DNA from: Proteromonas lacertae
Taxonomy: Eukaryota
Direction: 5' to 3'
Length of the DNA stretch: 64,000 bases
Assembly: GCA_002245135.1 (NCBI GenBank)
Contig: NGBS01000011.1
Span: forward strand, 62,001-126,000
Of the stretch, positions 4,751 through 64,000 are shown one piece after another; positions within the stretch are counted from its first letter, which is position 1; every line of letters starts with the position of its first letter. Below the pieces are notes generated by a model. It saw only the letters and a program-made list of their open reading frames with translations. It searched no databases and had not been told where the DNA came from. The translations under genes were made by a program, and so were the position numbers.

Positions 4751-4796
4751 AATAGAGGAGATAATTTAAAAACAAGTTTCTGAACTTTAATAAAAA

Positions 4797-16830: not shown

Positions 16831-17931
16831 TTACGAAGAATTACTGGTATTGGATGTAATATTGTTTTGATCTACACTTTCTTTATCTAGAGAGATAAAT
16901 GAATCACATCTCCCTTTATTGACTTTATGATGTTTTTCTTTTTCTTCATTATCTGTGGGATATGATATAGCAACATCATATAGAACACTATAATTTGAAA
17001 TAAATTTATAAGAATCAGGATTTAGTTCATGTAATAGATTTCTATAATCTGATTCATATGGACATGATTTATGAGTGAATAATACTCGACTTAAATGTTC
17101 ACATTTCGTTTCTACTAACTTTGAACCAAGAATCTGCAAATCTAAGTCTTTGAATATTCTTATTCTATTTGTTATTTCTAAGTATAATTCTGATGTAATA
17201 ACATCTTTTATCAGGGCCTTTTTAATGTTACATAAAAACGATTTAAAATATGAATTGTCTTTCAATAACATACACACATTATCTATATACACTCCACCAC
17301 TACCACGTATAACACTAGATATAAAATATGTATAACATATACTCTTCATTGAATGAAAGTATTGTTTCTTCATCCCTATAATAGGATAAGAATTGAATCA
17401 ACTGATTTAATGATATTTCATAATTGGGATTTGTACCACATATAGACAATAACACTATTCATAATACAATAATGAATAATACATTTCACTAAATTTTCAA
17501 AAGTGCAGAAACCAAACACGTATATGAATATCAAAAAGGTATTAAAATCAACTTTTAAACCTAATATAGTAATTGTATAAATGTTATACCATAAACTTTA
17601 AAAAATTTGTCAAATACTGGTGAACTGTTTAAGCCAAGCTTAGAAATGAAATCATTAGCTTTGATATAAGAATGTGTCTGGTTTGAACTCCACATGAACA
17701 GGTATTTTTTCTGAAAGTATGAGATATCGAGGTAGTTTACTACAGTAAATATAATCATTCTATACAACATAAAATATATGCTATATTGAGAGAAGTTGAG
17801 TTGATATGCAGCTGTGGATTGGTCACATTATGGTACATGCTTTTTTTCTTGTAAAACTTCATAGCCAGCTTCTATATTTTTAAATAAAGAAAATATTTTA
17901 CCATTTTTTTTATTTCTTCTATTTCATCCAT
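16831..17931 (-). CDS. Degenerate EF-hand (calcineurin B/NCS-like) family, copy A
   Basis: Spliced MDEIEEIKKM|KLAMKFYKKK...IKANDFISKLGLNSSPVFDKFFKVYG|LKVDFNTFLIFIYVF...EISLNQLIQFL; ~25-30 nt introns. Confidence 0.65.
17037..17853. repeat. 817 bp near-identical direct repeat of 18681-19497
   Basis: Offset 1644; one mismatch noticed (17336 C vs 18980 T). Confidence 0.9.
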
Positions 17932-18836
17932 TGCAATATCAAAAAATTTTATTACTACTAAAAACCAATTTCTTTATCGTTACTAAAGAACATTAGAAAA
18001 AAAGCATAGGAATAGTAGGAAAATAAATTATAAATCAAATAACTAACATAATATACTAGATTATATCACTCTAGTAGACATTTCTAATAATTTTTCTAAA
18101 CATAAGAATATTGGTGATAATTTATGGCTTATACCTCAACCATATTCTACAAATAACAGTGCACAAGCGAATCCATCACCTAACCTACGAAATCCAAATA
18201 TAATTATACCCTTTGTTGGTTTAAATTTTATCAATCAACAAGTTAATATTCTTAGAAACAAATAATCTTAATTTTAATAACTTCAACCAACTTTTGTTAT
18301 TTTTGCTTTAATTTAGTCACATAACACAAGGCTATTACATTATTATTTATTTATGATTACTTCTTAATCATTTCCCTACACACAATAGAAGTAAAAATTC
18401 AAAAAATTAAAAATAAGATAAAATAGAAGAAGGTAAATCGAAAAAAATCTAGAATCTATATACATACATTACATAGAATTGCATGAATTTAACGATATAT
18501 TCATATCACTAACATTCATTTTGTTAAGTGAAATAAAAGAGTTATTTTCACAACTTTTTTCTTTATAATCTTTATAACTTTTCATTCTTTCTTCTTTTAT
18601 AGGATATAACCTACAAATATCATTTAAAATGTTAAATATGGAGATAATCTGTCCAGAATTTGGATTAATTACATTTAATTGATTTCTATAATCTGATTCA
18701 TATGGACATGATTTATGAGTGAATAATACTCGACTTAAATGTTCACATTTCGTTTCTACTAACTTTGAACCAAGAATCTGCAAATCTAAGTCTTTGAATA
18801 TTCTTATTCTATTTGTTATTTCTAAGTATAATTCTG
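17850..18836. repeat. ~987 bp near-identical direct repeat of 24606-25592
   Basis: Offset 6756, consistent at both ends. Confidence 0.9.
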
Positions 18837-19583
18837 ATGTAATAACATCTTTTATCAGGGCCTTTTTAATGTTACATAAAAACGATTTAAAATATGAATT
18901 GTCTTTCAATAACATACACACATTATCTATATACACTCCACCACTACCACGTATAACACTAGATATAAAATATGTATAATATATACTCTTCATTGAATGA
19001 AAGTATTGTTTCTTCATCCCTATAATAGGATAAGAATTGAATCAACTGATTTAATGATATTTCATAATTGGGATTTGTACCACATATAGACAATAACACT
19101 ATTCATAATACAATAATGAATAATACATTTCACTAAATTTTCAAAAGTGCAGAAACCAAACACGTATATGAATATCAAAAAGGTATTAAAATCAACTTTT
19201 AAACCTAATATAGTAATTGTATAAATGTTATACCATAAACTTTAAAAAATTTGTCAAATACTGGTGAACTGTTTAAGCCAAGCTTAGAAATGAAATCATT
19301 AGCTTTGATATAAGAATGTGTCTGGTTTGAACTCCACATGAACAGGTATTTTTTCTGAAAGTATGAGATATCGAGGTAGTTTACTACAGTAAATATAATC
19401 ATTCTATACAACATAAAATATATGCTATATTGAGAGAAGTTGAGTTGATATGCAGCTGTGGATTGGTCACATTATGGTACATGCTTTTTTTCTTGTACAC
19501 TATAAGAATTCTAATCTATTTTGCAAATAGGACTTATATACTTGACCCAAGCTGGGCTCGTTGAATTTTGACTTTAACACCAT
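18469..19583 (-). CDS. EF-hand family copy B: chimera (3' end from copy C, middle from copy A) with a putative transposon-derived first exon
   Basis: Identity blocks with A and C; ATG 19583 MVLKSKFNEPSLGQ, 26-nt GT-AG intron, then IRILIVYKKKSMYHN in the copy A frame. Confidence 0.6.
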
Positions 19584-25224: not shown

Positions 25225-26329
25225 TTACATAGAATTGCATGAATTTAACGATATATTCATATCACTAACATTCATTTTGTTAAGTGAAATAAAAGAGTTA
25301 TTTTCACAACTTTTTTCTTTATAATCTTTATAACTTTTCATTCTTTCTTCTTTTATAGGATATAACCTACAAATATCATTTAAAATGTTAAATATGGAGA
25401 TAATCTGTCCAGAATTTGGATTAATTACATTTAATTGATTTCTATAATCTGATTCATATGGACATGATTTATGAGTGAATAATACTCGACTTAAATGTTC
25501 ACATTTCGTTTCTACTAACTTTGAACCAAGAATCTGCAAATCTAAGTCTTTGAATATTCTTATTCTATTTGTTATTTCTAAGTATAATTCTGCTGAGATT
25601 ATCTCTTTTACAAGTGTATATTTTATATTGCATAAAAATGATTTAAAATATGAATTATCATTTAACAACTCACACACTTCATCAATATAAATACCACCAC
25701 CACCACTTATAGCACTAGATATAATATAAGTATAACATATACTCTTCACTGAATGAAATAGAAATACAATCACTTTGAAAATATGAGAGAAATTTTACCA
25801 ATTGATTGAGTAGTATTTCAGCACTTGGATTTATACCACATGCGCATAACAATACTATACATAAAAAGGATAATTGAAATACATCTCACTAAATGTTCAA
25901 CAGGACTAAACGCAAACCCATACAAAAATATAAAAAACACATTAAAATCTATTCGTGAATCTATCATAATAGTTATAAGAATTTATACTATTTATTTTGA
26001 AAAATTTGTCAAATAGTAAAGAATTGTTAAATCCAAGCTTATATATAAAATCATGAGCTTTGATGTAAGGATATGCTTGATTTGAACTCCACATAGACAG
26101 GAATTTGTTTTGTAATAGAGATAATTCATGGTAGTTTACTAAAGTAAATATATTCATATATACAACATAAAATATAGGCTATGTTGAGTGAAGTTGAGTT
26201 GATAAGCAGCTGCGGTTTCAGATTATTAAGGAAACTGGTTCTTCTACGGTAATACTTCATAGCTAACTTCTATATTTTATTATAATAAATAAATATTACC
26301 ATTTCATTAATCACTTCTACGTCATTCAT
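25225..26329 (-). CDS. EF-hand family copy C
   Basis: MNDVEVINEM start; same exon pattern; ORFs 25225-25773 and 25942-26157. Confidence 0.7.
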
Positions 26330-26860: not shown

Positions 26861-27925
26861 CTACGATGAATTGCTGGCATGGGATACAATATTTCTATTC
26901 CTCTCTCTTGTATTTTCTTTGTTGAGAGAGATAAATGAACCACTATTTTCTCTATTCTCTTTATAGCTTTTCTTTTTATCTTCTTCTATTGGATACAACC
27001 TACAAATATCACATAAAACGTTAAATATGGAGATAATCTGTCTAGAGTCAGGATTTTGTTCATTTAATAAATTTCTATAATCTGATTCATATGGACATGA
27101 TTTATGAGTAAATAATACTCTATTTAAATGTTCACATTTCGTTTCTACTCGGTTAATACCTAGAACATGTAAATCTAAGTCTTTAAAAATTCTAACTCGA
27201 TTAGTAATTTCTAAGTATAACTCTGTTGAGATTATCTCTTTTACAAGATTCTTTTTAATATCATATAAGAAGGATGTGGAGTATGAGTTACTCTTTAATA
27301 TTTCACATATATTATCTACATATATCCCATTCTGTCCAGTAGTATCTGAAATTGTGAATGTTGCTATCCCATCTGTTTGAAAATAGGAAAGAAACCGTAT
27401 CAATTGATTGTTTGATATTCCAACATTAGGATTAATACCACATGCACACAACAATACTATGAATTAGAAAAAAAAGTTATACATCTTACCAAATGTTCAA
27501 AAGGAGCGAAGACAAACCCATAAATAAATATAAGAAACACATTAAAATCTACTTTTGAATCTAGCATATTAAATACAATAACTTATACCGTATATATTGA
27601 AAAAATTGTCAAAGAACACTGAACTGTTTAAACCAAGTTTGCAAACAAAATCATTAGCGTTAATATATGGGTTCGTTTGATTTGACCACATTCTCAAGTA
27701 TTTGTATTGAAATAACGATACTTCACGGTAGTTCACTATAATAAGTGCATATATATATACAACATAAAATATAGGCTATGTTGAGTGAAGTTGAGTTTAA
27801 AAGTAACTGGGGTTTGACACAATTAAGGAAGTTCCTCCTTCTACAGTAATATTTCAAGGCAGATTTCTATAAATAGTGATAATAATATGCAATACCATCT
27901 TATCGATTTTTTCTGCATCATCCAT
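26861..27925 (-). CDS. EF-hand family copy D
   Basis: MDDAEKIDKM start; shares ELYLEITNR...VETKCEHL..VLFTHKSCPYESDYRN. Confidence 0.7.
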
Positions 27926-47349: not shown

Positions 47350-48326
47350 TTATTTTATGCTTTCACAGATTTCTTCACATTTTGAAAATAAATACTCTCT
47401 TTTATTCTTCCAGTATCTATCCAATCTGCTTATCTTTATCTTACAATCACCATAATACAATCCACTCTCATATTCACACAACTTTGAAACAGAACAATAA
47501 ATAGTAGTTGAACAGCCTTCTTCTACTGTTTTTTCTACACATCCATAACAACTCATGGGAGAATGTTTAAAATTACGATATAATTGCGTATTAATCACTC
47601 CTGGATGAACTGCATAAAAATGAACATTCTTCTCTCTCAAACTATATTCATAACATATCTGATTGATTTGTAATTTAGAATTACAATATGCTTTAAACCT
47701 ATTAAAACAACAACCAGTAGGTGGAATAGTATAAAATGGATTTGCAAACCAATGGCTAAATGAGGATAGAAATATTACTCTAGAATGTTCTCTTTCTCTT
47801 AATTGATTTAATAATAATTTAGTTAACAAAAATGGACCTAACACATTAACACTGAAATGAATTTCTAAGTTATTCTCTGTATTCTCAAACTTATCATTAC
47901 CTATTATTCCTGCGTTGTTTATTAATATGTCTAATGGATATTCTTTCTCTTCATATGCTAAACAAAACACTCGAATACTGTGTAAACTACTCAAATCTAA
48001 TTTCATTACTTCTATTTCACTGTTATTTGTTAAATATTTTAATTCATTAGCGAGTTTATTACCTTCAGATATGTTACGACATCCTAAAATCAAATGAGCT
48101 TTAGTTTCTGCTAAAACATGAGCTGTTTCTCTTCCAATTCCACTGGTAGCTCCCTATTATATATTTATAAACTTATAATACTGTTATTATTACATAGCGA
48201 TCTTTCAAATTCACATTTTCGTTTTGAATTATCTCATTTCCAGTTGTCTTACTGTTATATGGATGACTATTAAGATTTATTATTTTTTATCAAAATAAAT
48301 ATATCATACGATTGAAAATTTCCCAT
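47350..48326 (-). CDS. Short-chain dehydrogenase/reductase (retinol dehydrogenase-like)
   Basis: GATSGIG, LDLSSL, LINNAG, YCNSK, VHPGVINT; MGNFQS start. Confidence 0.9.
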
Positions 48327-49723
48327 TTTAGATAAATGGTTTATGAAAAAAAGATTAGAAATACCCAAAAGTTTTAAAAATACAAAGAAATTGTATTAAC
48401 ATTAAAAATATTTATAAAAATATCAAAAGTAAATGAAGAACTGTTAGAAGGTGAATGACAGTACTTGAAATCAAACATATAGAATTAATACAGCTGTTAG
48501 TAGGATGTTGTAGTATATGTATTATATAACAGTTTCAATATGCAGCACAAATGATTTCAACTCATTCACAGCACTAAAAAGAGTGTAACGTGTGGAGGAA
48601 TGTATATTTAAAATGTATGTATCTTTAATACAGAAAACAATTATAGCATGTTGTTGTGCGCCGTTGAGCTAAATGAGCCGTTGGGCGTTAAGAAGACTTT
48701 TTTCAAAACTAATATCATATTTATGATGTTGACGATGAGTTATGTTCAAATATATATTTAGTTTGTAATATAGACAACTATTTTGTGCAACATAAAATTG
48801 TTATAATATGTTTCAAAACCTACATAAAACTGTAGTACACATCATATATATGTCAAATATAAAATTAATATATTAGTATTATGTTATAATAAAAAGCAGC
48901 AGTTATACAGGAATTAAGAATTATACCCCTTCTGACTTCATAGTGTTTTCACACAAACATTTTTCAAGCATATTATTTTCTTTTAGTTTTTGTATGATAT
49001 ATATACTTTTTATAGAATGATAAAGAATATAAGAGAAATACATATTAGTCTTCTTATTATTTTTAAGATTATTATTCGAAAGAATAAAAATTGAAGAAGA
49101 TTACTATGTATGTACTATTCAAGAAATTTATCTTTATATATGGTAATAAATAATTTTTTATTATGATTTAGCTTTATATTACAAACACATTTTCAACTAT
49201 CTACTTATATTCACATAATATTCCTTCTAACCTACTCAACTCTTTTGAGCTTCTAAATCGTACATTATACACTCTAATTCCTTCTTCTTTTCTCGAACTA
49301 TTTTAGAAAGAACCATACTTTTTCATATAAACAAACAATTTGCAGTATTTTCATTCATTTTCTTATATTAATAATAACTACATATCTTTTTTAAACCACT
49401 ACATGAAAATCTTTTAGCAAGAGTTAAAAATCACTAATCATCTGTACTAATGGTTTGCTATTATATTATTCTCTATCTCTTTCCTCCTTATATTAATTTA
49501 TATGTAATCCTCATTAGTGATTGACATGTTAAAATATGCAATTAAATAAATAGAATCATTTAATGACAAATTTCTCCAATTAATAATGATTCCATCATTT
49601 AATTACCACATTTAAGACTTGGAACATTCATTTCATCTAATTATTCCTATTAAGAATAAATTAGCATTTATACAACTACTATTCCAGTAAATTTCTATAA
49701 ATCACATATACATAGTATTTAGA

Positions 49724-49795
49724 GTGCTCAAAAAATAACAAGAATCGACACAAACATAAGTTTGATCATTTTCTCAATTTTTATTTTTTGAGCAC
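49724..49795. repeat. 15-bp perfect inverted repeat with a 42-nt spacer
   Basis: GTGCTCAAAAAATAA ... TTATTTTTTGAGCAC. Confidence 0.8.
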
Positions 49796-50129
49796 CTGCC
49801 TCCTATAGGAAGTAAGGGCTCAATATAATAATATATTATGTGTATATGATGATTATATCAAACATTAATTTAAATATATTAGTCTAATTTTCGTAATCTA
49901 GCTATTTCCTTAATTATTTATAATTGATTTATAGTATAATAAAATAATACACATATGTAACACATAATATTTATATGTACCTATTTATACTTTTATCAAA
50001 CATATTTGTAAATATTTCTAATTATAAACATACAAAACACTAACAGATGTATATTTATTTGTTACTCAATGATAATTTAACCTTTGTCTTAAAAATCAAA
50101 TCAAAAATCCATAATAACATCAATGTGTC

Positions 50130-50280
50130 TTTTTTCTCAGTTTGCATAGCTTCTACTATAGCTAAATTTGCACCTTCTTCTACTACTTTACCTTCTTTTA
50201 CTAATACACCATAAAATTACCAGTCATTGAGACAAGCTAAAAATTTGGAATGATTTACTTCAGGTTTTGGAATCATGCTT
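50130..50280 (-). pseudogene. Biotinyl-domain fragment (propionyl-CoA carboxylase alpha-like C-terminus)
   Basis: MIPKPEVNHSKFLAC/MTG/GVLVKEGKVVEEGANLAIVEAMQ with frameshifts; AMK appears as AMQ. Confidence 0.65.
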
Positions 50281-50289
50281 TGATAATTT

Positions 50290-50750
50290 GCTTTCTAAAG
50301 CATTTCTTACATCTATAGTGAAGCTACCTCCATAACCTTCTACTAATCTTTTCATATATTGTACAGCTACCTATTTTAGAAACCTTTGTATGTTTAAAAC
50401 AGAGTTAACTTCTACATCACCACATAATCTCAATACTATTTTTATTTCTTTCCTATTCAATAAACAAGTCTCAATTATCACTTTAACAAGTATATTGGTC
50501 TTATGACATTCCACTACAATAGGAATAATTTCTTTATTTTAATATTTTTAGTCATTTTCTTTTAATGCTACAACAATAACCTTATCTGAGCTATCAGCGT
50601 TATCTTTTATAAATATTTTGGCTTCTTGCAATTTTATCTCTGGAGTTGTTACATCTAGTTGTTACTCTCCTCATTTTTACTTTCTTTCATTATTTTACCA
50701 TCTCTACTGTCTGATTTATCTTCAAGTAGATGGAGCTAAAGGTAAACAAC
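50290..50750 (-). pseudogene. deoC: Deoxyribose-phosphate aldolase fragment
   Basis: TTPEIKLQEAKIFIKDNADSSDKVI and VKVIIETCLL, with frameshifts and stops. Confidence 0.7.
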
Positions 50751-50776
50751 TGTTATTATATCTATTGTACCCTATA

Positions 50777-51190
50777 TTATGAATAATGTGTATATTCATA
50801 ATCATCTCTATATATAGTAACGATAGGCTCCTGTGACGCAAAAACTACTAGTTTTTCAAAAATATGATATTCACACCACATTTCTTCAAGAGAAGTACTA
50901 ACTGTTATATTGGTGGCTATTGATGGCTTTACTATATCCATACAATGTTCAACATAAGCTCCAGGTAAAGGAACACGATAATCTACAAATGGTTCTTTTC
51001 TATCAGGATCTGTATCTACTCTAATAAATACATAATAATTCCCAGCTATATATTCTTCATTACAACAATCTGGTATATCAATAATCCATCGATTATTAAA
51101 ACGCATATGTTGATAAATAGCAAGCATTATCTTACCTTCATAATAATAAGGATAGATATAATGTTCATACTTAGGAGGATTAAATGTCAT
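50777..51190 (-). CDS. Hypothetical protein, possible distant paralog of the 60.4-61.3 kb ORFs
   Basis: Intronless 137-aa ORF; VSTSLEEMWCEYHI motif. Confidence 0.6.
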   Translation of the reverse strand: MTFNPPKYEHYIYPYYYEGKIMLAIYQHMRFNNRWIIDIPDCCNEEYIAGNYYVFIRVDTDPDRKEPFVDYRVPLPGAYVEHCMDIVKPSIATNITVSTSLEEMWCEYHIFEKLVVFASQEPIVTIYRDDYEYTHYS

Positions 51191-51222
51191 AATTAATATT
51201 CAAAAATCCAAAATACCAAGTG

Positions 51223-51330
51223 CATGAACGATTATTGGTTAAAAACAAATAATGGAAACGACATGAATTTTTATTGGTTAAATGCAAATAATAATAACAA
51301 AATGGCATGAATGATTATTGGTTAAAAATC
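51223..51330. promoter_or_regulatory. Three imperfect ~41-bp repeats, each with an ATTGG (CCAAT) box
   Basis: CATGAA...TTATTGGTTAAA three times, just upstream of the 50777-51190 start. Confidence 0.55.
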
Positions 51331-51476
51331 TACAAAAAAAAATATATATATACAAACATACATACATACATACATCTATAAAGAAAACAATAATAATAAA
51401 AATAATAATAATAATAATATATATTAATTAAACATCGAAATTTATAAAAACTATATCGGATTTCATTTCAGTATTA

Positions 51477-52442
51477 TTATCTTCTGAAGATTGATAGTTG
51501 ATTACGACATTTTTCACATGTTTGTGATATTAAAAATGAACAATTATCCCATTCCAGAAAATTTGGTATTGTATAAAAACCTAAACATTTTTTACATTTT
51601 AATTTGACTTCAGTTCTACAGTTTAAACAATTTTTTGCTATTTTAAAAGTTTTATCATCAATTACTAAAAATGAAGTTGATCCAAACCACTTTTTGCATA
51701 CTTCACACTGTTGTTCATTTATATGACTATATATTACTGGCTGAGATAACATTTTCATTTCAAATAAATAATTATTTGTAATATCTACTATAATTTTATT
51801 TCTTTTTAAAATATCAACAATATTTCTTGATAAAATAGTAAAATCATTCCTTGCTTGTGCAGAAATATACATTTCTATATTATTATTACCTAACTGATTT
51901 AAATATTTTGGAATTAAACATTTTCCATTAATCTTATTAAAGAAATGCTTACAGAATATTATTATCATTTCAGGATTACGCAAAAATTCTGCTAAATACG
52001 GAGTTCTATGTTTATTATAGTGATATTTAGTCCAATTTATGTATTTCAAATATTCCCTAAATGAAATCGCCTTCATATATTCAAAATTCGATTTTACTTT
52101 ATGATGTACTGTACTTAAAAATGAAGCATAATCTCTCTCATTATTCTGAATTTGTATATTGATATTTTTATCAATTGTAATTACACTATCTTCATCTGCA
52201 TTTGTATCTACATCTACAACTTCAACTACATTATTATTATTATTAGTATTAGTAGTATTAGTATTATTTTCTGTTTCGCTTTCATTCAAAAAAGGATTTA
52301 ATGATGATGATAACGATGATGTATTATCTAATTCAGGAAGATCCCACATTTCAGGATCACTAAAGTCCATGTAAGATTCTGGATCACTAAATAAAGGTTC
52401 TTCATTAAATAACTCCTCTCTATCTATATCTTGACTTGCCAT
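51477..52442 (-). CDS. Protein with an acidic N-terminus and two tandem C4 zinc-ribbon repeats
   Basis: CEVC...CLNCR and CKKC...CEKCR. Confidence 0.7.
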   Translation of the reverse strand: MASQDIDREELFNEEPLFSDPESYMDFSDPEMWDLPELDNTSSLSSSLNPFLNESETENNTNTTNTNNNNNVVEVVDVDTNADEDSVITIDKNINIQIQNNERDYASFLSTVHHKVKSNFEYMKAISFREYLKYINWTKYHYNKHRTPYLAEFLRNPEMIIIFCKHFFNKINGKCLIPKYLNQLGNNNIEMYISAQARNDFTILSRNIVDILKRNKIIVDITNNYLFEMKMLSQPVIYSHINEQQCEVCKKWFGSTSFLVIDDKTFKIAKNCLNCRTEVKLKCKKCLGFYTIPNFLEWDNCSFLISQTCEKCRNQLSIFRR

Positions 52443-52804
52443 ACAGTTTATTTTCAATGAACTATATATACATTATAGAATTTATAAGATAATTATAAAC
52501 ATGATTATAGTACTATGAATTATGAATTAGATACTCTATGAAAATATATTATAGAATATATAATATACTATAAAATAATAAAAGAAATTATAAGAATTAA
52601 ACAAGAAATCTCTAAATAAATGAGTGTGAGTAAAACAAAAAATTTCAGTTTCACCATAATAATTTATTTTTTTTTATTTTCAAAAACTTGTTTGTAACTG
52701 TAAATTTCATTTCCAATTTTCTCTTTATTTTAGAGAATTTGTCTATTTTAATATTCTTTATAATTAAATTTATATATATAATATTATATATATTCATATT
52801 CATT

Positions 52805-54169
52805 ATGGCTCGTATTAAGAAAGTTTCAAAAAGATCTGCTACAAACAAGAAGTTAGTATATATATATATATATATATTATTTATGATTTATACAAAATAG
52901 GATAAACAAAGAAAAGAGAGTGATAGAAGATTGAATGCAAAAGAGTTTGAAAATATGACTCATCCTTCTCCTCCTCCTCCTTCTCCTCCTCCTCCTACTA
53001 CTACTACTACTGCTACTACTACTACTACTGCTACTAATTCTACAACAACAAATTCAAAATGAGATATTGAGAGTGATAGCGAAGAAGCTATATTAGATGA
53101 TTTTATGAAAGTATATGATAAAGATATAAAGGAGTGGAGAGAAGCAGAAGAAAAAGAAATGTATGAAGCAGGTGAATTTATTCCTTGGAATGATCAGAAA
53201 AGAATCAATGAATTTGTCAACAAGTGCATGACATTATATCTAGAAAACAAATCAGAAGATGAAATTAAAAAAGAAATTAGAAAGATGCTGTTAGATTATA
53301 AATTCAAACGTGGTTATCTGAATGAAATATTACGAAGAGTGGATCAAGCAAAACATGAACATGATCAAATGCAAAAGTTGAAAGAAGCTCCTCATCCTAA
53401 AGAATGTTCAACAAGAACAATATCTAATGAAGAATATGAAAGATTAGTAAAGAGTGCTGAAGAAAGTGCAAAAGCAAGAGAAGAAAAAGAAGATGATGAA
53501 ATACCTGATCCACCAAAGATTAAAAGATTACACTGTGAATTTTATAATTTATGGAATTGAGATAAAAATGATGAAGATACAGAAGAAAAAGTCAGAAAGC
53601 ATATTAAGAAATATCAACCCAAAGATGAAAAAAAGTTGTTAGTTAGATATGATATTTATGGTAGACCTATGGATGAAGTAGATGAAGAATATGATCCAGA
53701 AAAACCAGTTGATACTAGCGATGATGAAGAAGAAGTTATTGGTGATGATTATGATGATGATGATGATGTTTATAGTGATATTATGGAAGAAGAAAATGAT
53801 GATGTAGAATGTAATGAAACACTTAGTAATATGGAAACTGATAGTGATATTATACCTTATACTCAAACATCACCAACCTATTCTCCAACTTCTATAATAG
53901 ATACTGTTTCTAAAAAAGAAGAAGAAGAAGAAGAAGAATTTGTTCCTGGTACTCCTCAAGATGAAGAAATAGAAACTCATGGTGTTAAATATTCAAGTGA
54001 TGAAGAAGAATCTGATCAATCAGATGATGAATGTAGATTAATTATCAAAATCATGAGTAAGAAGATCAAAGACATATTCAAGAACATGAAGATAGGTGCT
54101 TTTAGCGTAAAAGAATATAATCACAGTTATGATGTTTCAATAAATATAAGAAAAAACACCATTAATTAA
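52805..54169 (+). pseudogene. ~440-codon acidic protein with one intron and two in-frame TGA codons
   Basis: MARIKKVSKRS; intron 52856-52900; TGA at 53060 and 53558 with the frame continuing through ORFs 53105 and 53636. Confidence 0.65.
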
Positions 54170-54231
54170 AATATTATTATTATTATTAAAATGATTACTA
54201 TATTATCTTATTATTTGTTTGTTCTTTATTT

Positions 54232-54800
54232 TTAATTATTCATTGCTGATGGAATAACAAATTCTGTCATAACAGGAACAGTAGGATGTATACATTGAGT
54301 TATTGATGTAGGAGAGTTTTCTAATGAGTTTGCTAAAGGTGTAATTTCTTCATCATCTTCTTCTCTAAATTTATCGCCTGCTTGTTTGATTGCTACTAGA
54401 AGTTCTATTCTTCTTAATTCTGACAATAAATGTTCTGTTTGAAATACTAATCCACTAATTTGTTGAGATGGCATTGTATAGAATGGTAAATCATCATCAC
54501 TTCTATATTTACTAAAGAAATCATATAAATTGTTAACAATATTGATTAAATGCGAATCTGTATGACATACACACACTGCTGTATTAATAGATACTTTCTT
54601 ACTTGTTCTAGTTCTCTTTGGTTTAGTTTTTGGTAATTCATTTGTTGTAGTTTGAGTATTATTGTTTTCTATTTTTACTCCTCCATTATCTTGTACTGAA
54701 TCTCTATTAGTCTTTTTAGTATTTGTTCTTCTTCTTTTAATCGGTTTTGTATCAGTGACATTTGTATTTGGTTTTTCTGGTAATTTTGGTGATATAATCT
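54232..54800 (-). CDS. Hypothetical protein with basic NLS-like tracts; start unclear
   Basis: Frame open upstream of ORF 54232-54576 (PIKRRRT, KPKRTRTSKK). Confidence 0.5.
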
Positions 54801-54933
54801 AATATCATTCAAGAAAATGATAAATGAAATTATTTTTAATATTTTATAAATCTAAAAAACAAAAACCTAAAATATAAGATTAGTGAAATATGATTGGCTA
54901 TTTTCTAATTAATATCTTTTCTACTAAACGTCG

Positions 54934-55554
54934 TCAAATATCAAACTGTGTTTGTCTTGTTATAGTTCGTCTTGATCCTATTCTTGGTGGACTCGGCTTG
55001 GAATTGGTAATTGGTTGATGAGGTGAAAAAAAATGCTCTACTAATTCTTCATTATCATTTATCATTGTACTATTACTATGTGTAGTTTCTTCTTCTTCTT
55101 CTTCTCGTGATACATTATGAACAGTATTTTCTTCTGATAATGATTTATTCTTTTTATAATTACGTATAGGACTCATAAAGAAATTAGATAATCTTCTTCC
55201 ATATGATATATGTTGTTGTTGTTGTTGATTATGTAAATTTGATATTGTGGGTGTTGAAGGTGAATAAAGTGAATGTGGTGTTTTAATTCCAAAACATCTC
55301 ATAATCATTGTTTTTAATTTTAATAATACTAATAAAACTACAGAGACAAGTGCAATTATTAATTCTGTTTTCATAGAGTTGATTACATCATTAATTAATG
55401 TTACATTAGATGTCATATTATTCACTAATTGATTAATAAATTGAATTGTGTAATTTTTATCCATATGATGAAAAAATCTATGAATATTATATTTATAGTA
55501 ACAATACATCGAGAAAATTACGAATAAACTTTCATTCATGTTTTTCTTGAACAT
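54934..55554 (-). CDS. Hypothetical single-pass membrane protein
   Basis: LIIALVSVVLLVLL segment followed by a disordered tail. Confidence 0.55.
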   Translation of the reverse strand: MFKKNMNESLFVIFSMYCYYKYNIHRFFHHMDKNYTIQFINQLVNNMTSNVTLINDVINSMKTELIIALVSVVLLVLLKLKTMIMRCFGIKTPHSLYSPSTPTISNLHNQQQQQHISYGRRLSNFFMSPIRNYKKNKSLSEENTVHNVSREEEEEETTHSNSTMINDNEELVEHFFSPHQPITNSKPSPPRIGSRRTITRQTQFDI

Positions 55555-55562
55555 AGTTTCAC

Positions 55563-55979
55563 ATGTTTTTCTTGATCATTTTCATATTATCAGAAAGTGA
55601 AAGAGAAAGAAGAAGATTGAATTGCGAAAACATGAGAAAAATTAAAGCAATGAAAAGAAAACAATTATCAAAAAAGAATTACAATAAGAAATTATTATCA
55701 AAACATTATGATAATGATAATGATGATATTTTACCAGAGAATTATGAATATGATGACAATAATGATGATGAAGATGTAATGGATTATTTTAACAAAAAAT
55801 ATGAAGATTTGATAAAAAGAAAACATGTATATTATGATATACCAGAAAAGAAAAAACAAGCAATTAGAAGTAGAGTTTCAAAGAGAGATATACCTGTTAG
55901 TAAATATAAACCAATAGCATTAACTGATAAACCACCAAGTATAAATGCAATAAAACCAATATATACTAATTTTGACTAA
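55563..55979 (+). CDS. Small basic/acidic hypothetical protein
   Basis: 138-aa ORF, LSESERERRRLNCENMRKIK. Confidence 0.5.
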   Translation: MFFLIIFILSESERERRRLNCENMRKIKAMKRKQLSKKNYNKKLLSKHYDNDNDDILPENYEYDDNNDDEDVMDYFNKKYEDLIKRKHVYYDIPEKKKQAIRSRVSKRDIPVSKYKPIALTDKPPSINAIKPIYTNFD

Positions 55980-56127
55980 ATAATTTCATTTACTATTTTC
56001 TTGTATCTTATTATAGAAAAAAAAATATATTTGTTTTTTAGGGTTTTTAATTTATATTATGTATAGAAGAAAAATAAAAAATGTTAAAATAAAAATACCT
56101 GGTATTAATTTTAAACTCCGAGAGAAA

Positions 56128-58080
56128 ATGTATAATGATTTAAGAAGTACATTAATACCACAAAAAATAAAAATAAATGAAATGAAAAATCCGAAAAGAA
56201 ATTTAGTTCAAGAAATGAAAAATAAAATTAAATAAGCAGCTAATGCACAAGTTGCTTTATATGAAAATGGTAAATATTATGATCCTAAAAATTTAACTGG
56301 CTATAATAAAGGTTTTCCAACTGCACAAGGTATATTAGAGGAAGATGATATTGGTAATCCTATTCAGAATGCTAATCCTACACAAGATGATATTGTTAAT
56401 CCAGGAAGAAATCCTAAATATAATCGGCTGTTAAGTTTTTCAACTGATTCATCATCATCATCAACAACATCCTATCCTTCAACTACTAGAAGAAATTCTA
56501 TAGCATCAAGAATATCATCAAATTTAGAAAATTCAGAATATTATGATGATATAAGAACTAAAGCCAAAAAATTATGGGCTCATATGTTGGATGATGTTCA
56601 AAATAAAATTCATGTAAGAGATAAATGGAATAACTTAATGGAAGGAATTTTAAGAAATGATAGAATAAATTCTAGAAATAAAGTACTAAATGAAGTATTA
56701 AATGAAGAAAAAGAGAATTTTGATTCTGTTTCATCATCAGAAACTAATTATGCTTCTAAATTATTAAATGAAGAACCAATTGTAAGAGATGAATATATAA
56801 CGTATATATTGAGATATCTTAAATTTAATCCAAATGAATGGAATGAATATATAGATTTAGTATTTCCAAATCCTGATAATATTAGTGATGAAGATTATGA
56901 GAGAATTAATAATAGTAATGATGCAAAAATGAATTTAATAAAGTTATTATATTTATATCTACCAACTATTGGTATGAGTATGAATAAGAATGTAATTGAA
57001 ATTGATCAATTAAAAATAGATGAATTAAGAATTGGTGATATTATTGATCGAAATATTGATATATTACTAGAAAATTGTGGATTAGATTATTATAGTAAAC
57101 AAATTAAGATATTATAGAAAGTTATAGTCCTGATACAATTTCACGTAGATCATCTATTAGATCTTCTATTAAATCATATAATGATTTACCACCACCCTCT
57201 GCTCCTAATACACCATCACCTCATAAACCTTCTATATTTTCTCCTGTAAAAAAAGATTCATCAACTGGTTTTAGACCTAGTGATTTACAGGTTGATGGAG
57301 TAAATAGTGAACAAGCACAGATAAATTCACCAGGTGGATTTCCATTATACAATAATGAATTAGTTGATTATTCATCTAATCCAATTAAAGTATCTAATAA
57401 AAGTATTACATCTACTGATCCTATTATGGGTTATCAAAGTAATGAAATAATTAATATTGAAGAAAATGAAGATAATGCAAAAGAAAATGATGATGAATCA
57501 ACAGCAGTTAATCTTGCTAGATTAGAAATTGCTGAATTGAACACTAGATTAATAGAAATAACTAATGATAGAAATGAGATACAACAACAATATGATGAAA
57601 TAAAAAATAAATATGAGAATACTATTGTAGAATATAATGAAAAACTATCTAATGAAAAACATAAAATATCATTTGAATATTTTAATAAATTAACAGAATT
57701 CAGAAATAAAATACAAGAATTAGAACAAAAATTAGGAGAAAAAGAAAACTTATTAGAATATAATCAACAAGAACCTCATCTTAGAGCAATGTATGATGTT
57801 TATAAAAGAAATTTAGCAGAATATATGGAGGAAAATAAAAAATTACAAGATATGATAAAAGATTAAGAAGCTAATAACACTGAAATAATGAATCAATTTT
57901 GGAATATCAATAATAAATATCGTGAAGTTGATGAAAAATACAATCAATTATCTGACATTTATGAAAAATTGGTGAGTTAAAATAAAGATTTACAAACAGC
58001 TAATGATCATTTGAATGAACAACTTATTGAAGCACATGAAGAATTTAGTTTATTACAAGAACAAGTTGTAGAATATAAAA
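56128..58080 (+). pseudogene. Large coiled-coil protein, disrupted and fused by deletion to the capsid-like gene
   Basis: TAA at 56233, 57864 and 57978; frameshift near 57110. Confidence 0.6.
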
Positions 58081-58081
58081 T

Positions 58082-59123
58082 TGGACTAATGATGGATATG
58101 AAATTGCATTAAAGAATACATTTGGAATTCAATCAATTAGAGTATACAATTCAAATGGAGTTAATTTATTCTATGTGTCTGATGATAATTACAGTGATTA
58201 TATTGACTTTATGAGATTACTAACTAGATCACAAACAACTGAAATAAACAATGATCATAAATATTTTGATGGATGTGAGTTGGAATATAATGATGATCTA
58301 CATAAATACATTGTTACTGATTATCATACATTGAATAATACAGATGATAACATATCATATGAACAAATGCTATGGTATGATGGAAAAGAAACAGTTAGAG
58401 TAAAATTATTTTTCAAAAGTGATATTTGTTTCATTGAAAAAATAAAAATCGAAATTAAATTCATGAATATCAAACACTTTACATATGGATATTTAAGATG
58501 TAGAAATAGTTATACTAATCCAATAAATGGTTTTGATGTAAGTGTTTGATATTATGGCTTGTTATAATCAAGATACAGCTTGTAATGAAAATACAATCAA
58601 TTATTGTTGTACACATGAAATAGATATTAATGATTTTCATGTAAACTCTAACAATACAACTACGTCACAAACTGATTATTTAAATTATCAATTTCAAATA
58701 AATTCAAGTTATGGACCTTATTTGAAATTTGTTTTATATCGTAATCTTTATCCTACAGGTTTTCCTATTATATGGTCAGAAGGATCTAATTTTAGATGGA
58801 TGATTAATGATTTTCCTTGGACTGTTGATTATGTTAGAGTTGATCCACAATATGAAAGTTTTCAGAAATTAACTAAAAGATTAAAGAATTGTTATTATAA
58901 TAATAACAGAGAAGATTTATTTATTGAAAATTTCTTTGAATTATTAGATTTCAGTAATGAGAGTTTAATTAATATGTCTAGTAGAAGTGGAAGACCATTA
59001 GATTCTGAATTGAAATTAACTTTTGAAGCACATAATAATACATGGAGTTTCATGCCTAAAAATTCAAGTTTATTGTTAAAAATAGGAAGACAAGGTATTG
59101 AAGCAATTATATATAAAAAATAA
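58082..59123 (+). pseudogene. Probable double jelly-roll major capsid protein, 5'-truncated and frameshifted
   Basis: FGIQSIRVYNSNGVNLFYVSDDNYSDYIDFMRLL and terminal LLLKIGRQGIEAI resemble PLV capsid motifs; beta-rich; adjacent to the ATPase. Confidence 0.5.
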
Positions 59124-59233
59124 ATATTAACAATTAATTAAAAAAATTTGAATTAATCTTTATTATAAAATTTCTTCTACTATTTGTTGTTTTTTTCTCT
59201 ATAAATTTTTCATATTATTATTATTATTATTAT

Positions 59234-59515
59234 ATGATAAAATTAAAAAGAAACAATAATGTTGATATTAATCAGTTGGTTGATAAATCATTAAAGAAAA
59301 AGAAACGAGCAGTCAATAACAAATACAAAGATAGAGAGATATTAGGATTTGATTTCTTCCCAGAACCATTTTGTAATGTGTTTTTACTAGCTAAGAAAAA
59401 CAGTGGTAAAACAACAGTATATTTCTTTGTTTCAACATTTGATACAGATATTATTTATCAAGAAATTAAAGAAACATTGGATAAATATGATATAGAGTAT
59501 GATAATAATGAATAA
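59234..59515 (+). pseudogene. A32/FtsK-like viral packaging ATPase, truncated
   Basis: GFDFFPEPFCNVFLLAKKNSGKTTV (Walker A) followed directly by YFFVST; no Walker B. Confidence 0.7.
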
Positions 59516-59618
59516 TAAAGGGAAATGAGTACAATTTGAAACCCCTATATTTTTGGGTTTTTGTATTCGAAACCCTATATGGTTTTTTTATTCGTTACTT
59601 TTTGTTTTCGAAAATATA

Positions 59619-59690
59619 GTCGTTATGCTTCAAATCTAATTTGCAAAAAATACTCAATTATGTTATTATGCATTGAAAACATCACCAATC
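59619..59690. repeat. 72-bp imperfect direct repeat, copy 1 (copy 2 at 61379-61450)
   Basis: First 33 and last 19 bp identical. Confidence 0.9.
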
Positions 59691-59745
59691 ATTTTTTTAT
59701 TATGCATATACACACCCCCAACACATAGATAATTGATTGAGTTGA

Positions 59746-60310
59746 TTAGTCAAAAACATTAGATCTAATGATTAGTGATTCTTCTTCAGCTTCTTTAATG
59801 ACTTCACTCCGTCTATTTCTGTAGAACTCTATTTTCGGTGGATTGACTGATGAAGGGAAATTGTAGTAAATATTTATACATTGACCTACTACATTTTGAT
59901 GCTTGAAAATATCATCAACAAGGAATGCATGGAGCTTACTTCTGACTGATGCTGTCTGGTCTCCATAAAATTTCATCACATCATGCCATTTGCAACCATT
60001 ATCTCTAATGAACTCCAATTTTCTCTGAAATGTTAATCTTCTGGTGTATAGCAACATCTCTGAACTGAAGCTGAGAGTACCGTTTGCTGTCGTGTACATT
60101 GCATCTAATTTGATAATACATTCATCCAAATAGTTCTGAAATAACTCTTGTTGCTTAATAGCCATCGACTTGTATACATCTACTACCTTTAGTTATAAAT
60201 GGTTGAATGATTGATCTAATGTCTCTTACTTTCTTAATTAGGTCTGGGACAACTATCATCTTAAAATCACTATAGTATAACTCATCATAGGATCTGAGAC
60301 GTTTAGACAT
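59746..60310 (-). CDS. Hypothetical protein with a probable frameshift near 60190
   Basis: MSKRLRSYDEL frame switches to VVDVYKSMAIKQQELF. Confidence 0.5.
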
Positions 60311-60443
60311 GTTAATAATGAAAATTAGTAACAGAGAGTGAAACGGATATACTTTTTATTTTCTTGAAACCTAATTGGATGACTCCTATACGTGTTCCAA
60401 CATGATTGTTCAAAACATATATCTTTATCAACTAACCAGTTAA

Positions 60444-60815
60444 TTGATACAAAATATAAAAAAATATCCGTTTCATATAGATATTATGATTACTCCTAAA
60501 ACTTACATATTAATGGATTTATTAGTGGTACAGATCACAACAAGTGCCTGTACTATACTCATCATACCTCCTGAGACAAATAAGAAGCTTTTAGAAGAAA
60601 ATGTCAAAATCATGTTGTGTGGTCCAGACTATACTATCAATGAACCTCATTTACAAGTCAATGAGGATAAGAAGGAATGGAATGTGATATTTCCCCAGTG
60701 CTTTAGACCACATGTTAGAACAAGTCTAGGTGATCCTTGGGTACAGAAGCATGTCAGCTGGGATGATTTTAGAGAAGATGTAGAGTATGAAGAATTCATG
60801 TGTAAGAAAATATAA
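60444..60815 (+). CDS. Hypothetical protein, paralog of 60787-61308
   Basis: IIPPETNKKLLEENVKIMLCGPDY...RTSLGDPWVQKHV. Confidence 0.6.
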   Translation: MIQNIKKYPFHIDIMITPKTYILMDLLVVQITTSACTILIIPPETNKKLLEENVKIMLCGPDYTINEPHLQVNEDKKEWNVIFPQCFRPHVRTSLGDPWVQKHVSWDDFREDVEYEEFMCKKI

Positions 60816-61308
60816 AATCAAAAAGGAGGATCATTTTGACATTCCGAAGATGGATCCAGGCATGGAAGAATTTGTATGCAATCCTATAGGAAACCATGTT
60901 GGAAATATAAAAGATGTGGTCTTTGACAGCAAAATTGGTTATATGGTTTACAAGTGTAAGAATGATAATTCAGCACCTCTATTCCAATTAACATATCCTG
61001 AAGATGATAAAATCGAAGGAATACAATGCTACCTAAAGATATGTCCTGAAAGTAATAATTTTTTAATGGATAACAATGCAAGAATCACAATACTTGGACC
61101 TCAGTTTCATTTAAAGATTCCATTATTCCAGAGATGCAAAGAGCACAATTCCTATGAGATTATACTTCCAAGAGCTCCAGTTATCTTAGATACAACATTA
61201 CCTTACAATTGGGTTCAACAGCATATCAAAATATGTTGGGAGCCTAGCAAAAGCCATTTGATTGAAGATTTAATTGCTAAAGGTATTATAGTGGATCCTT
61301 GTGCATAA
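60787..61308 (+). CDS. Hypothetical protein, paralog of 60444-60815
   Basis: ICPESNNFLMDNNARITILGPQF...DTTLPYNWVQQHI. Confidence 0.65.
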   Translation: MKNSCVRKYKIKKEDHFDIPKMDPGMEEFVCNPIGNHVGNIKDVVFDSKIGYMVYKCKNDNSAPLFQLTYPEDDKIEGIQCYLKICPESNNFLMDNNARITILGPQFHLKIPLFQRCKEHNSYEIILPRAPVILDTTLPYNWVQQHIKICWEPSKSHLIEDLIAKGIIVDPCA

Positions 61309-61378
61309 ACATGAGAGAAGTAAAAATATATCCGTTTCAGGATAAAAATATTTTTTGGGTTTATATATTTGAAATTTT

Positions 61379-61450
61379 GTCGTTATGCTTCAAATCTAAT
61401 TTGCAAAAAATGCAAAATTATATTATTATCTATTGAAAACATCACCAATC
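61379..61450. repeat. 72-bp imperfect direct repeat, copy 2
   Basis: Matches 59619-59690. Confidence 0.9.
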
Positions 61451-61949
61451 TTTTCGTAATATTATGATGGACTCATATATGCCCTTAGTTTGACTTTCTA
61501 TTATAATTCGATATCTAAATAGATTTCAAAATAAACTAAAAATATCGATACATATATCATGATTACCATATGGTGTGATATGACACCATATAGTGATAAA
61601 AAAACAAAACAAAAAAATAGAGTTCAAGCCAAATCACTTTTGTAACGAATCTATTTTTTCAATTATTAAAATTTCTTATAAGACGTATATTGCTTATCTA
61701 TATAATGCTAATTAATTATGTATATCATAAACACAACACCCTACACAAACACAATCAATCATTTGAACAAATTAGGATCAGAGATTAATAATGGAAGCGG
61801 ACAGTACTCATCATCATCATCTTCCTCTGTGCTCACATCTTCCATTTTTTTTGTTTGATTTCTTTCTTTGAATTGTTCTCTTCTTTTTGAATTTAGGAGT
61901 AGTTGAAGTAGTGCACTTTCTTTTTGTAGATACTATTTTCAGCTAGGTT

Positions 61950-62816
61950 TTCAAACAATGATACTGAGATTCCTTCAAATATCTTTACCCATTGATTTAG
62001 GAATTTACATATGTCATACGTAACTGCACTATCTAAACCAGTACTAACTTTATCTAATAACAATACTCTGGCTGGACCAGCTAATGCCTCACCTAATGTA
62101 ACTCTTTTCTTTTCACCTCCACTAATACCTCGAATCATTTCATCACCTACTACTGTATTTTCGCAGATATTCAATCCCAACTTTTCTATCAACAGTTTGG
62201 TTTTATTACTCACATCAAATTCTAATCTGTAATGGCCTATTTTTAATAAATTACCTTTACCATTCAAACAATGAACTGAAAAGTCTAATGTTTCTTTCAC
62301 AGTCAAATTGCCTAATTGAATGTCATTTTGACCACAGAAACTACACAATTTCTTCCAGTTCAAACTCTCGATTGGCTTACCATCACATTTCACACTTCCT
62401 GTGTGTTTACTAAATGGAATATAACCTGCCAATGCCTTTAAGAACGATGTACTACCAGAAGAAGGAGGGCCAAATACCTAATTGCTTATAAGTATGTTTT
62501 ATACTAATGTTGATGAACCAGACTTGAAGTGATAAGTCACATCCTTAAGAACCACTTGATTTTTCTTACTTGATAAACCTAATCCATCCACTACTTGACT
62601 GTAAACTCCAGTAACAATGTTTGGAATATCATTATACTCTCTTTTCTTCTTCTTTACCTCATAGGTGTAGTTTTTAATAACAATATCAACTTTTGGCAAG
62701 TCTGATAAAAATATCTTTAACTCCCTTGCATATTTCACATACTCTGATTTTTCTATATTTTCGTCATCTGTTATACATACACTAACTGGTAGATGATTAA
62801 CATTACTCATTATCAA
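61950..62816 (-). pseudogene. ABCG/PDR transporter N-terminal NBD, 3'-truncated
   Basis: GPPSSGSTS, IRGISGGEKKRVTLGE, LLDKVSTGLDS; similarity stops at GISVSL with no TM domain. Confidence 0.8.
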
Positions 62817-63435
62817 TTCAGTTAATGTATTGGGTGTTTTTTATTTTACTATCTCCTGTATAATATATAGTTTAACATACATATAATTAATCACATTATT
62901 ACTTTCTATTATAATCACTTCATCCTGAAGGAAAAATAATAAAAATATTTTAGAGTTTTGTTGTAAAAATTATAATTCCCCTATATAATTCCAACATAAA
63001 TGGCACAAACCAAATCCATTAGCAAAATCACTAAAACTAATTATACTCCAAAAATTATATTAGTAAACGTTTGAGAACTATGAATAAAGGTAATAAAGTA
63101 CAAATATCCTGTAAATACACAAATATTCCATAACTACATTAGCTTATTGCACCTTTTTAGCTTAAATTTCAACATATGTACTTCCAAATTACCAATCTCA
63201 ATTATTTAATAGTCTAATAGTGTATTACAAAATAATTTAGATGTTCCAATTCTCTAGGTTATAACATTGTGAATTAAGAATTGATTTAACTGCTTAAAAT
63301 ACGTCATGTTATTTAAACGCTTTAAGGTTAAGTTTTTTTTCAATGTTAAATCTACTTTACCATTACTTCAATATTTCTTAATTTAAGAATTTTCTGAAAA
63401 ATTCTCAAACTTATGTTAGGTTTGAGTTGTTATAA

Positions 63436-64000
63436 TTAAGCCTATTATTAAAATTATTGTATCTACCCTTAAAAAGTATAAAAATACTAATATATTTCAC
63501 TCCATATGAAGAGATAGAATATAATGAAAATGTAGTATTTGAAATAAGTGGAATAAGTACTCAAACAGTAGAAATAAGAGGAAGAGGATCTCAATTACAT
63601 TTAGAATTAGTAGATTTGAGAAAACAAGTAATCAATTTTGGTAAAGTAGAAGTGAATAGTGATAATAATAAGAGTATAGAAATAATCAATCGTAGTTTAT
63701 ACACTTACAATTTCGAAGTAGTAAATGAATCAAATGAAGGAATGTTTGGTGATATAAACTGTGTAAGTATAAGTCCAAAAGGTGAAATAACAATAAAACC
63801 AAAACAAATGATTAGTTTAGATATAAATTTCCATCCAAATCAGAGATTATTAGCATTTGAGAATCATTACAATGTAAAAATCAATGGTGGTGAAGCATTA
63901 TCATTCTTTACAGTAAAAGGCGCTTGTCAAGGTGTAGATGTAGTAATAGAAACCTCGTTATTGCAATTTGGAGCAGTGTGTTTAGGTTCATCAGTAACTC
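63436..64000 (+). CDS. HYDIN: Hydin-like ASH/Ig-domain segment (internal fragment, runs off the window)
   Basis: YFTPYEEIEYNENVVFEISGISTQTVEIRGRG...INFG...ITIKPKQ...FHPNQR...VKGACQG...LQFGAV. Confidence 0.75.

Follow-up and report, generated by a model that had tools for sequence, protein, structure and literature searches.

A probable Polinton-like virus remnant with broken capsid and packaging ATPase genes in the genome of Proteromonas lacertae

Is the run of unfamiliar open reading frames (ORFs) between the genes of a protist contig the residue of an integrated virus? The question is raised by positions 50760 to 61950 of a 64,000-nucleotide (nt) stretch of Proteromonas lacertae DNA (GenBank assembly GCA_002245135.1, contig NGBS01000011.1, positions 62,001 to 126,000 of the forward strand), which we call the window and whose numbering is used throughout. 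A first-pass annotation had proposed an endogenous Polinton-like virus remnant here, and our analysis supports that proposal, as a relative of the capsid protein is predicted to fold as a double jelly roll and a relative of the ATPase maps to Pox_A32. In our view the region is likely to be what remains, now inactive, of a small DNA virus with a double-jelly-roll capsid, Polinton-like in the broad sense of Polisuviricotina, that integrated in a protist nuclear genome. Intron-bearing eukaryotic genes lie on both sides of it in the assembled window, which qualifies it as an endogenous viral element.

The capsid gene carries most of this evidence. Positions 58094-59123 on the plus strand encode about three quarters of a major capsid protein (MCP). 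The capsid identity given earlier to a single ORF at 58082-59123 holds, but the single ORF does not, as the region is spread over two frames, 58079-58549 and 58542-59123. Homology begins at 58094, and the first in-frame ATG comes only at 58211. The two pieces are as follows.

58094-58534, plus strand: MCP pseudogene, piece 1; residues ~118-281 of relatives of ~505 residues; 55-58% identity to P0004 and P0005 by tblastn; family profile E 3.8e-34.
58545-59123, plus strand: MCP pseudogene, piece 2, in the other frame; residues ~304-507 (aligned to 59111); 64-72% identity; family profile E 1.4e-77.

Searched as a protein, the frame of piece 2 matches P0004 (507 residues, 72% identical, E 2e-84) and P0005 (502 residues, 64%, E 3e-74). 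Searching 1.84 billion representatives with a profile yielded 22 proteins at E<=0.001, 20 of which look like members of the family; P0029 and P0032 are repeat proteins and were rejected. The resulting alignment (A4) has 17 rows, made up of 14 of the 22 profile matches together with P0004, P0005 and P0009, and excludes the short fragments P0023, P0028, P0030, P0031, P0033 and P0034 as well as the two repeat proteins. A tree of the C-terminal domain was built from 13 rows, without P0009, P0020, P0024, P0025 and P0027; in it the window copy falls together with P0004, P0005 and P0018 at 100/99.

Structure prediction, which had been suggested as a check on the capsid, was conducted on the intact relative P0005. 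A fold from an alignment of two sequences was unusable (predicted local distance difference test score, pLDDT, 35; best Foldseek E 8.7e-3). From the 17-sequence alignment, a model rich in beta strands was obtained with a mean pLDDT of 74.8 and a predicted template modelling (TM) score, pTM, of 0.77. Comparison with the PDB by Foldseek gave 177 matches at E<=0.001, and among the matches listed all 26 are double-jelly-roll capsid or scaffold proteins. The top match is the capsid of Singapore grouper iridovirus (E 8e-14, TM 0.53), and further matches include faustovirus, Paramecium bursaria chlorella virus 1 (PBCV-1), Emiliania huxleyi virus (EhV), African swine fever virus (ASFV) p72 and vaccinia D13. 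The same model has 103 matches in BFVD at 7-12% identity, with capsids of giant viruses, MELD virus (E 4.6e-10), adintovirus (E 7.2e-10) and virophages among them. Through P0005, which is 55-64% identical to the window pieces, the element is thus predicted to have possessed the double-jelly-roll MCP expected of Bamfordvirae. Sequence comparison does not reach this far: capsid models in Pfam are not matched at E<=0.1 by any of the 17 family members, and a search of PDB sequences with the family profile is empty at E<=10.

Measured against its relatives, the window gene is badly damaged. Piece 1 lacks the N-terminal ~117 residues, a part that comprises four predicted strands in a high-confidence zone of the P0005 model. 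Ten codons are missing at 58414/58415 and 10-12 codons at 59072/59073, and at the frame change near 58540 about 22 residues are gone from the junction. The segments missing at 58414 and 59072 are present in 100% and 90%, respectively, of ten long members, in which their top-residue share is 0.74 and 0.75 compared with a protein mean of 0.50, and both fall in model blocks of pLDDT 92-93. Because of this above-mean conservation and confident modelling, we read the two gaps as lesions, not as loop variation. The middle segment, at the frame junction, is less conserved (top-residue share 0.32). An intron was considered as a cause of the frame change and rejected; a GT-AG pair could close the frame, yet ~22 of the relatives' residues would still be absent. 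The idea that the in-frame deletions are cryptic introns spliced out of a retro-copy was weakly rejected, as no GT...AG reading is evident at the 58414 gap when judged from the residues of the relatives. The coiled-coil frame upstream reaches 58112 and overlaps the start of capsid homology; since it runs into a truncated capsid gene, a large deletion probably took place near 58090.

The second hallmark gene follows at once, with its ORF starting 110 nt past the capsid stop and its Walker A-like AKKNSGKTT at 59390-59416, directly after the capsid as the first-pass annotation had it.

59234-59515, plus strand: A32-type packaging ATPase pseudogene; 93 residues; 59-70% identity to the relatives P0001-P0003.

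These relatives are 252-302 residues long (the search was confined to longer proteins) and retain Walker A, Walker B (IFIFDD) and an NRH motif. P0002, which is 70% identical to the window ORF, is placed by the Atlas in Pox_A32 (score 0.98, recognition 2722), the ten best family-bearing matches all agreeing, and Pox_A32 is found on 57-98% of members in six of the seven Atlas rows listed for this query. PHROGs gave a weak terminase ATPase match for all three relatives; the ATPase was not detected at threshold by a Pfam hidden Markov model scan, and a PDB sequence search gave no match for it. The A32 assignment suggested for 59234-59515 was borne out by these results, and a cellular ATPase was rejected, since the Atlas places P0002 among Pox_A32 packaging ATPases and not in a cellular family. 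Judged from P0002, the ORF would descend from an A32/FtsK-type packaging ATPase as expected of Bamfordvirae. The window copy amounts to the N-terminal third of such a protein. The 17 residues directly after Walker A are gone, and homology stops at 59503, ahead of Walker B, with about two thirds of the gene lost; the absent C-terminal part was sought elsewhere in the window and not found (best E 0.13). On its sequence, this ATPase cannot act as a working motor.

Small viruses typically have their capsid and ATPase genes adjacent within a compact block, which counts against a different origin that the fold matches bring to mind, namely descent from part of a giant virus (Nucleocytoviricota). Capsids of iridovirus, faustovirus, PBCV-1, ascovirus and pithovirus do lead the fold matches, and in several Atlas rows no phylum is commoner than Nucleocytoviricota. 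Yet the best of these capsids (Singapore grouper iridovirus, PBCV-1 Vp54, faustovirus) match at a TM of ~0.5 but only 7-12% identity, and the failure of all 17 family members to match capsid Pfam models, like that of the profile to find a PDB sequence, also speaks against such a source. A six-frame Pfam scan with stops read as X finds nothing at E<=0.01 in 50761-59501, hence none of the giant-virus core genes (family B polymerase, primase-helicase, RNA polymerase, late transcription factor), and only the host ABC_tran in 59500-63500; such scans overlook the capsid and ATPase too, so that a very divergent gene could escape them. Divergent Polinton-like capsids were themselves recognised by a similar PBCV-1 fold match in the accessible text of Bellas et al. 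2023 (PMC10120064). We give a giant-virus fragment only a slight chance of being correct.

The decay claimed at first pass is confirmed, as the element contains five in-frame stops, two frame changes (~57110 and ~58540) and lost segments in the capsid and ATPase genes alike. As assembled, the capsid and ATPase genes are both dead on their sequence. The stops at 53060, 53558, 56233, 57864 and 57978 and the frame change near 57110 lie within two long ORFs left of the capsid. Part of this damage could be technical: in such elements, the accessible text of Bellas et al. (PMC10120064) reports, many stop codons disappear after read correction, and the isolated stops and the 57110 frame change could fit that pattern and may be assembly errors. 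Were all of the breaks artefacts of collapsed similar copies, an intact or near-intact provirus would lie here. However, assembly error can hardly explain the multi-codon and gene-scale losses, namely deletions of 10-22 codons, 117 capsid codons and about two thirds of the ATPase, in the hallmark genes. Base-calling errors do not cause such losses, although chimeric joins might, and the missing parts are not elsewhere in the window. An intact provirus is, in our judgement, very unlikely.

Two observations on the lesions may be added. Within ~1.3 kb of coding sequence for capsid and ATPase lie four deletions of ~30-70 nt (58414, ~58540, 59072 and 59416), of which three keep the frame. The aligned capsid and ATPase pieces are without an internal nonsense codon, and the deletion sizes are near host intron lengths.

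Where, then, does the remnant belong? With Polinton-like viruses, Maverick-Polintons and adintoviruses it has in common a double-jelly-roll capsid, an A32/FtsK-type ATPase and integration in a eukaryote. It differs from Polisuviricotina (Aquintoviricetes, Polintoviricetes) in that protein-primed family B DNA polymerase (PolB), rve integrase, tyrosine recombinase, protease, penton and terminal repeats were not detected. The hallmarks of Polintoviricetes (protein-primed PolB, rve integrase, adenain-type protease) are absent in this copy in all six frames with stops read as X, and no polymerase, integrase, tyrosine recombinase or protease was detected anywhere in the element. No terminal inverted repeat was found for it either, so the earlier remark that polymerase, integrase and terminal inverted repeats are not visible stands. 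A 36-nt inverted pair (54800-54835/55978-56013) was rejected as terminal repeats, being internal and coinciding with an upstream motif described below. No ORF matched a penton in Pfam, PHROGs or NCBIfam, libraries that also miss the major capsid. Polinton-like elements are expected to be linear and 14-40 kb long, with terminal inverted repeats; ~11 kb remains of this decayed copy, which may have lost such repeats through decay or never had them. To the capsids of virophages (Virophaviricetes) the family has fold-level matches only. Because its sequence does not link the capsid to any named family, the element cannot be given a class within Polisuviricotina; the element cannot be filed under Polintoviricetes, virophages or giant viruses and is a new, decayed member of an already known kind of virus.

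A comparison can also be drawn with the Blastocystis MELD virus of Starrett et al. 2021 (PMC8502044). In the accessible text of that paper it is, like the window family, a small double-stranded DNA (dsDNA) virus infecting a gut stramenopile, with virion proteins that can be recognised only from profiles or structures. It differs in having an Alpha-adintovirus-like PolB and an integrase, neither of which is present in the window element. Virus-like particles in Blastocystis are also reviewed in PMC12835684, as its accessible part indicates.

Several points weigh against a Polinton-like origin. The predicted fold belongs to the relative P0005 and not to the window's own broken protein, and its best matches are giant-virus capsids rather than Polinton capsids. 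The Atlas recognition score for the capsid is low (1730), although the Atlas matches at 0.96-0.97, where 10-15% of members have Sputnik_MCP, Capsid_N and Capsid_NCLDV, do speak for a capsid. The cluster members listed (36 rows, 12 clusters) are all Logan proteins from contigs of <=7.8 kb, and scans of viral loci (queries P0002, A1, A2 and P0020) and of metagenome loci gave no intact genome of the family. Finally, relatives were identified for only 2 of ~12 genes, the capsid and the ATPase.

The remaining ORFs of the element, from ~50.8 kb onwards, are probably its accessory and structural genes. They are listed from the capsid leftwards, with a motif that recurs ahead of some of them.

56059-58112, plus strand: long ORF of ~680 codons whose C-terminal part resembles a coiled coil; interrupted by stops at 56233, 57864 and 57978 and a frame change at ~57110; coiled-coil Pfam matches sub-threshold only.
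55632-55979, plus strand: orphan ORF of 115 residues with basic and acidic stretches; shared upstream motif ahead.
54934-55575, minus strand: orphan ORF of 213 codons from stop to stop; single hydrophobic stretch.
54232-54798, minus strand: orphan ORF of 188 codons; shared upstream motif ahead; no ATG near the frame start.
52805-54169, plus strand: acidic orphan ORF; predicted 45-nt GT-AG intron at 52856-52900; in-frame TGA at 53060 and 53558.
51477-52442, minus strand: orphan ORF of 321 residues; acidic N-terminus and four C-terminal CxxC pairs, putatively zinc binding.
50777-51190, minus strand: orphan ORF of 137 residues; three TTATTGGTTAAA copies upstream.
54810-54829 (minus), 55530-55549 (plus) and 55984-56003 (plus): motif TTTCATT-N(2-8)-TTTTCTTG, three copies, each shortly upstream of an ORF.

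The description of these ORFs as orphans was confirmed. None of 15 element ORFs reaches the curated Pfam cut-off and none of the 12 tested reaches that of NCBIfam, while 1 of 12 has a weak match in PHROGs, to a PHROG of unknown function (E 0.00096). About ten further ORFs have no identified relatives in Pfam, PHROGs and NCBIfam, and a database-wide search covered one of them: residues 85-321 of the 51477-52442 ORF were without relatives there, and the ORF gave no match in a PDB sequence search. An exact-match lookup of eight window ORFs found none present in the protein collection. The abrupt switch to intron-poor genes that had been described fared less well, as GC content and long-frame coverage overlap those of the host and one ORF needs an intron. 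GC is 23.6-25.8% in 50760-59503 and 24.7% in 1-50000, so the core is without a GC step; stop-free frames of >=100 codons cover 0.76-0.82 of the element and 0.41-0.83 of five host blocks, and very long uninterrupted frames also occur in host DNA, for example at 9789-15341. The ORF that needs an intron is that at 52805, in which the unspliced frame contains a stop, exon 1 is 51 nt long and the downstream frame is open for 53 codons.

The motif TTTCATT-N(2-8)-TTTTCTTG has three matches in the window, all at 54.8-56.0 kb, where 0.01 are expected and none of 100 shuffles reaches three, a significance that is overstated since the motif was derived from the tested sites. It is likely a shared promoter motif. 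Ahead of the leftmost ORF, TTATTGGTTAAA (a CCAAT box on the minus strand) occurs at 51232, 51271 and 51315 (51222-51328) and nowhere else in the window.

Beyond the ATPase the composition changes. The block 59504-61500 starts exactly at the ATPase break and has a GC of 31.5% and a third-position GC (GC3) of 0.27-0.34 compared with 0.06-0.20. Its ORFs are the following.

59746-60165, minus strand: right-block ORF.
60486-60815, plus strand: right-block ORF, paralogous to the next.
60787-61308, plus strand: right-block ORF, paralogous to the preceding one.

The two paralogues share 31% over 67 residues (E 2e-8). The block also has a 95-nt direct repeat (59612-59704 / 61372-61466; 86%, 1760 nt apart) and contains three of the four window matches of TATCCGTTTC (0.08 expected). 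It may be a second insert, for instance a small mobile element, or part of another virus, and would probably have been joined by the same event that cut the ATPase.

How much of 50760-61950 is viral? The capsid and ATPase, which alone have identified relatives, are of viral ancestry; for the other ORFs of the interval a viral origin is plausible. Only a core might therefore be viral, from ~54 to 59.5 kb or just the capsid and ATPase, with host orphan genes at 50.8-54.2 kb and an unrelated mobile element at 59.5-61.5 kb. The 51477-52442 ORF without relatives, the host-like intron of the 52805 ORF, the confinement of the shared upstream motif to three ORFs at 54.8-56.0 kb, the distinct GC3 and own direct repeat of the right block, and ends fixed by no terminal repeat would all suit that arrangement. 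Against it, all ORFs at 50.8-61.5 kb are orphan and tightly packed compared with host ORFs, of which 10 of 15 picked outside 50760-61950 pass the Pfam cut-off, and the 52805 ORF is as decayed as the core. In addition, TTTTCTTGA has four copies in the interval, one of them at 60359 in the right block, versus none in the other 52.9 kb, and broken host-type genes adjoin both ends. We consider a core-only virus unlikely, and the earlier limits, 50760 to 61950, are plausible for an inferred extent.

At the left edge lies a stop-ridden fragment of deoxyribose-phosphate aldolase (DeoC; NCBIfam deoC E 1.6e-9; PDB E 4e-5). It adjoins a weak biotin-lipoyl domain fragment (E 0.003), the sites being 50420-50660 (minus) and 50058-50216 (minus), and the observed/expected CpG ratio is 0.08 in 50000-50760 versus 0.46 in 1-50000. 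At the right edge, an ABCG/PDR-like gene (61893-62840, minus) shows similarity that ends near 61960, after the first nucleotide-binding domain. No ABCG/PDR membrane domain was detected in 48200-50760 or 59500-63500, and the gene looks cut off at the element's right edge.

A history can be proposed that would account for these features. The ancestor, a dsDNA virus, would have entered the nucleus, where host machinery may have carried out its transcription and splicing, as one spliceosomal intron and one shared upstream motif suggest. It would have built an icosahedral particle from a capsid of the window type, with the A32 ATPase driving a linear genome of some 15-30 kb into that particle. Integration would have been catalysed by an enzyme since lost, after which the ends and the replication and integration genes may have disappeared and erosion proceeded by 30-70-nt deletions, larger deletions and nonsense changes. 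The present copy would yield neither capsid nor motor.

Has this family been seen before? Bellas et al. (PMC10120064) report >35,000 capsid hits across 462 protist genomes, and in the main text as accessible Proteromonas does not occur. Its Table S3 has a 450-residue P. lacertae capsid that was recognised when Foldseek matched it to the capsid of PBCV-1 (E 4.9e-9), and the Table S4 row for this genome gives 285 capsid hits in one cluster. Compared by eye, the Table S3 capsid and the window capsid have motifs in the same order: WMINDF in both, INSSIGPY and INSSYGPY, HTYFDG and HKYFDG, and FFEVLNF and FFELLDF, respectively. Both were recognised by a PBCV-1-type fold match. Again by eye, P0004 and P0005 are clearly closer to the window capsid than the Table S3 representative is, and the window copy therefore falls in another subgroup. 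The cluster criterion of Bellas et al. is 25% identity over 30% of length; on our comparison by eye, the capsid family has probably been catalogued already in their supplement. The suggestion of an undescribed lineage thus survives in part: the capsid family is apparently tabulated, but no description of its genome was found in a literature search that mostly covered papers outside subscription. A search for Proteromonas with polinton or Maverick returned only the preprint 10.64898/2026.07.28.741278, which in its accessible part names Proteromonas Polinton-like viruses only for comparison, and Opalinata with 'endogenous vir' returned none. Proteromonas is not named in the accessible main texts of the 2026 classification preprints 10.64898/2026.06.19.733378 and 10.64898/2026.10.13.758929 or of 10.1101/2025.04.19.649669, whose supplements may include its elements.

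Endogenous Polinton-like viruses are known from hundreds of protist genomes, and one more decayed copy changes little. The value lies in the capsid family, which is unseen by Pfam, PHROGs and PDB sequence searches and which, as far as searched, has been published only in rows of a supplement and a brief mention. The family may make up about one tenth of one gut protist genome (285 x 20 kb = 5.7 of 52 Mb, from the visible Table S4 row, read without column heads). The capsid profile, confident fold, ATPase partner and candidate promoter motif are now usable to find and classify intact copies. Intact capsids of the family are 30-70% identical to one another and form at least nine clusters in public sequencing data. 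A bolder idea, which we consider improbable, is that the remnant stems from a class of small double-jelly-roll viruses that is unclassified and still circulates among Opalinata-type protists of the gut, and that the host disables integrated copies by repeated cuts repaired as 30-70-nt microhomology deletions. A fold nearer to capsids of giant viruses than to those of named Polintons and at least one spliced gene would go with such a class, and the four short deletions with such repair. If this were true, such deletions would be a recognisable anti-provirus signature.

The setting of the element is that of a eukaryotic genome. The window has a GC of ~25%, eukaryotic gene content and short introns, and the host is probably an AT-rich, single-celled protist. 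Host genes recognised by Pfam comprise primase, PRP4, a class C G protein-coupled receptor, an SPX protein, pantoate ligase, a short-chain dehydrogenase, an ABC transporter and a Hydin-like Ig domain, the last of which suggests, on sequence, a flagellated host cell; Blastocystis has lost nearly all flagellar genes, according to the accessible text of PMC12129017. A flagellated relative such as Proteromonas would suit both the gene content and the capsid family. The receptor domain (7tm_3, E 7.9e-10) is the 3' end of a very large gene at 4794-16252 (plus), in which several thousand residues of apparently repeated extracellular domains precede the seven-transmembrane domain. Four copies of one host ORF, at 16831-17397, 18469-19041, 25225-25794 and 26861-27463 (all minus), constitute a local gene family; two were tested, neither being at the Pfam threshold, and the copies range from near-identical to moderately diverged.

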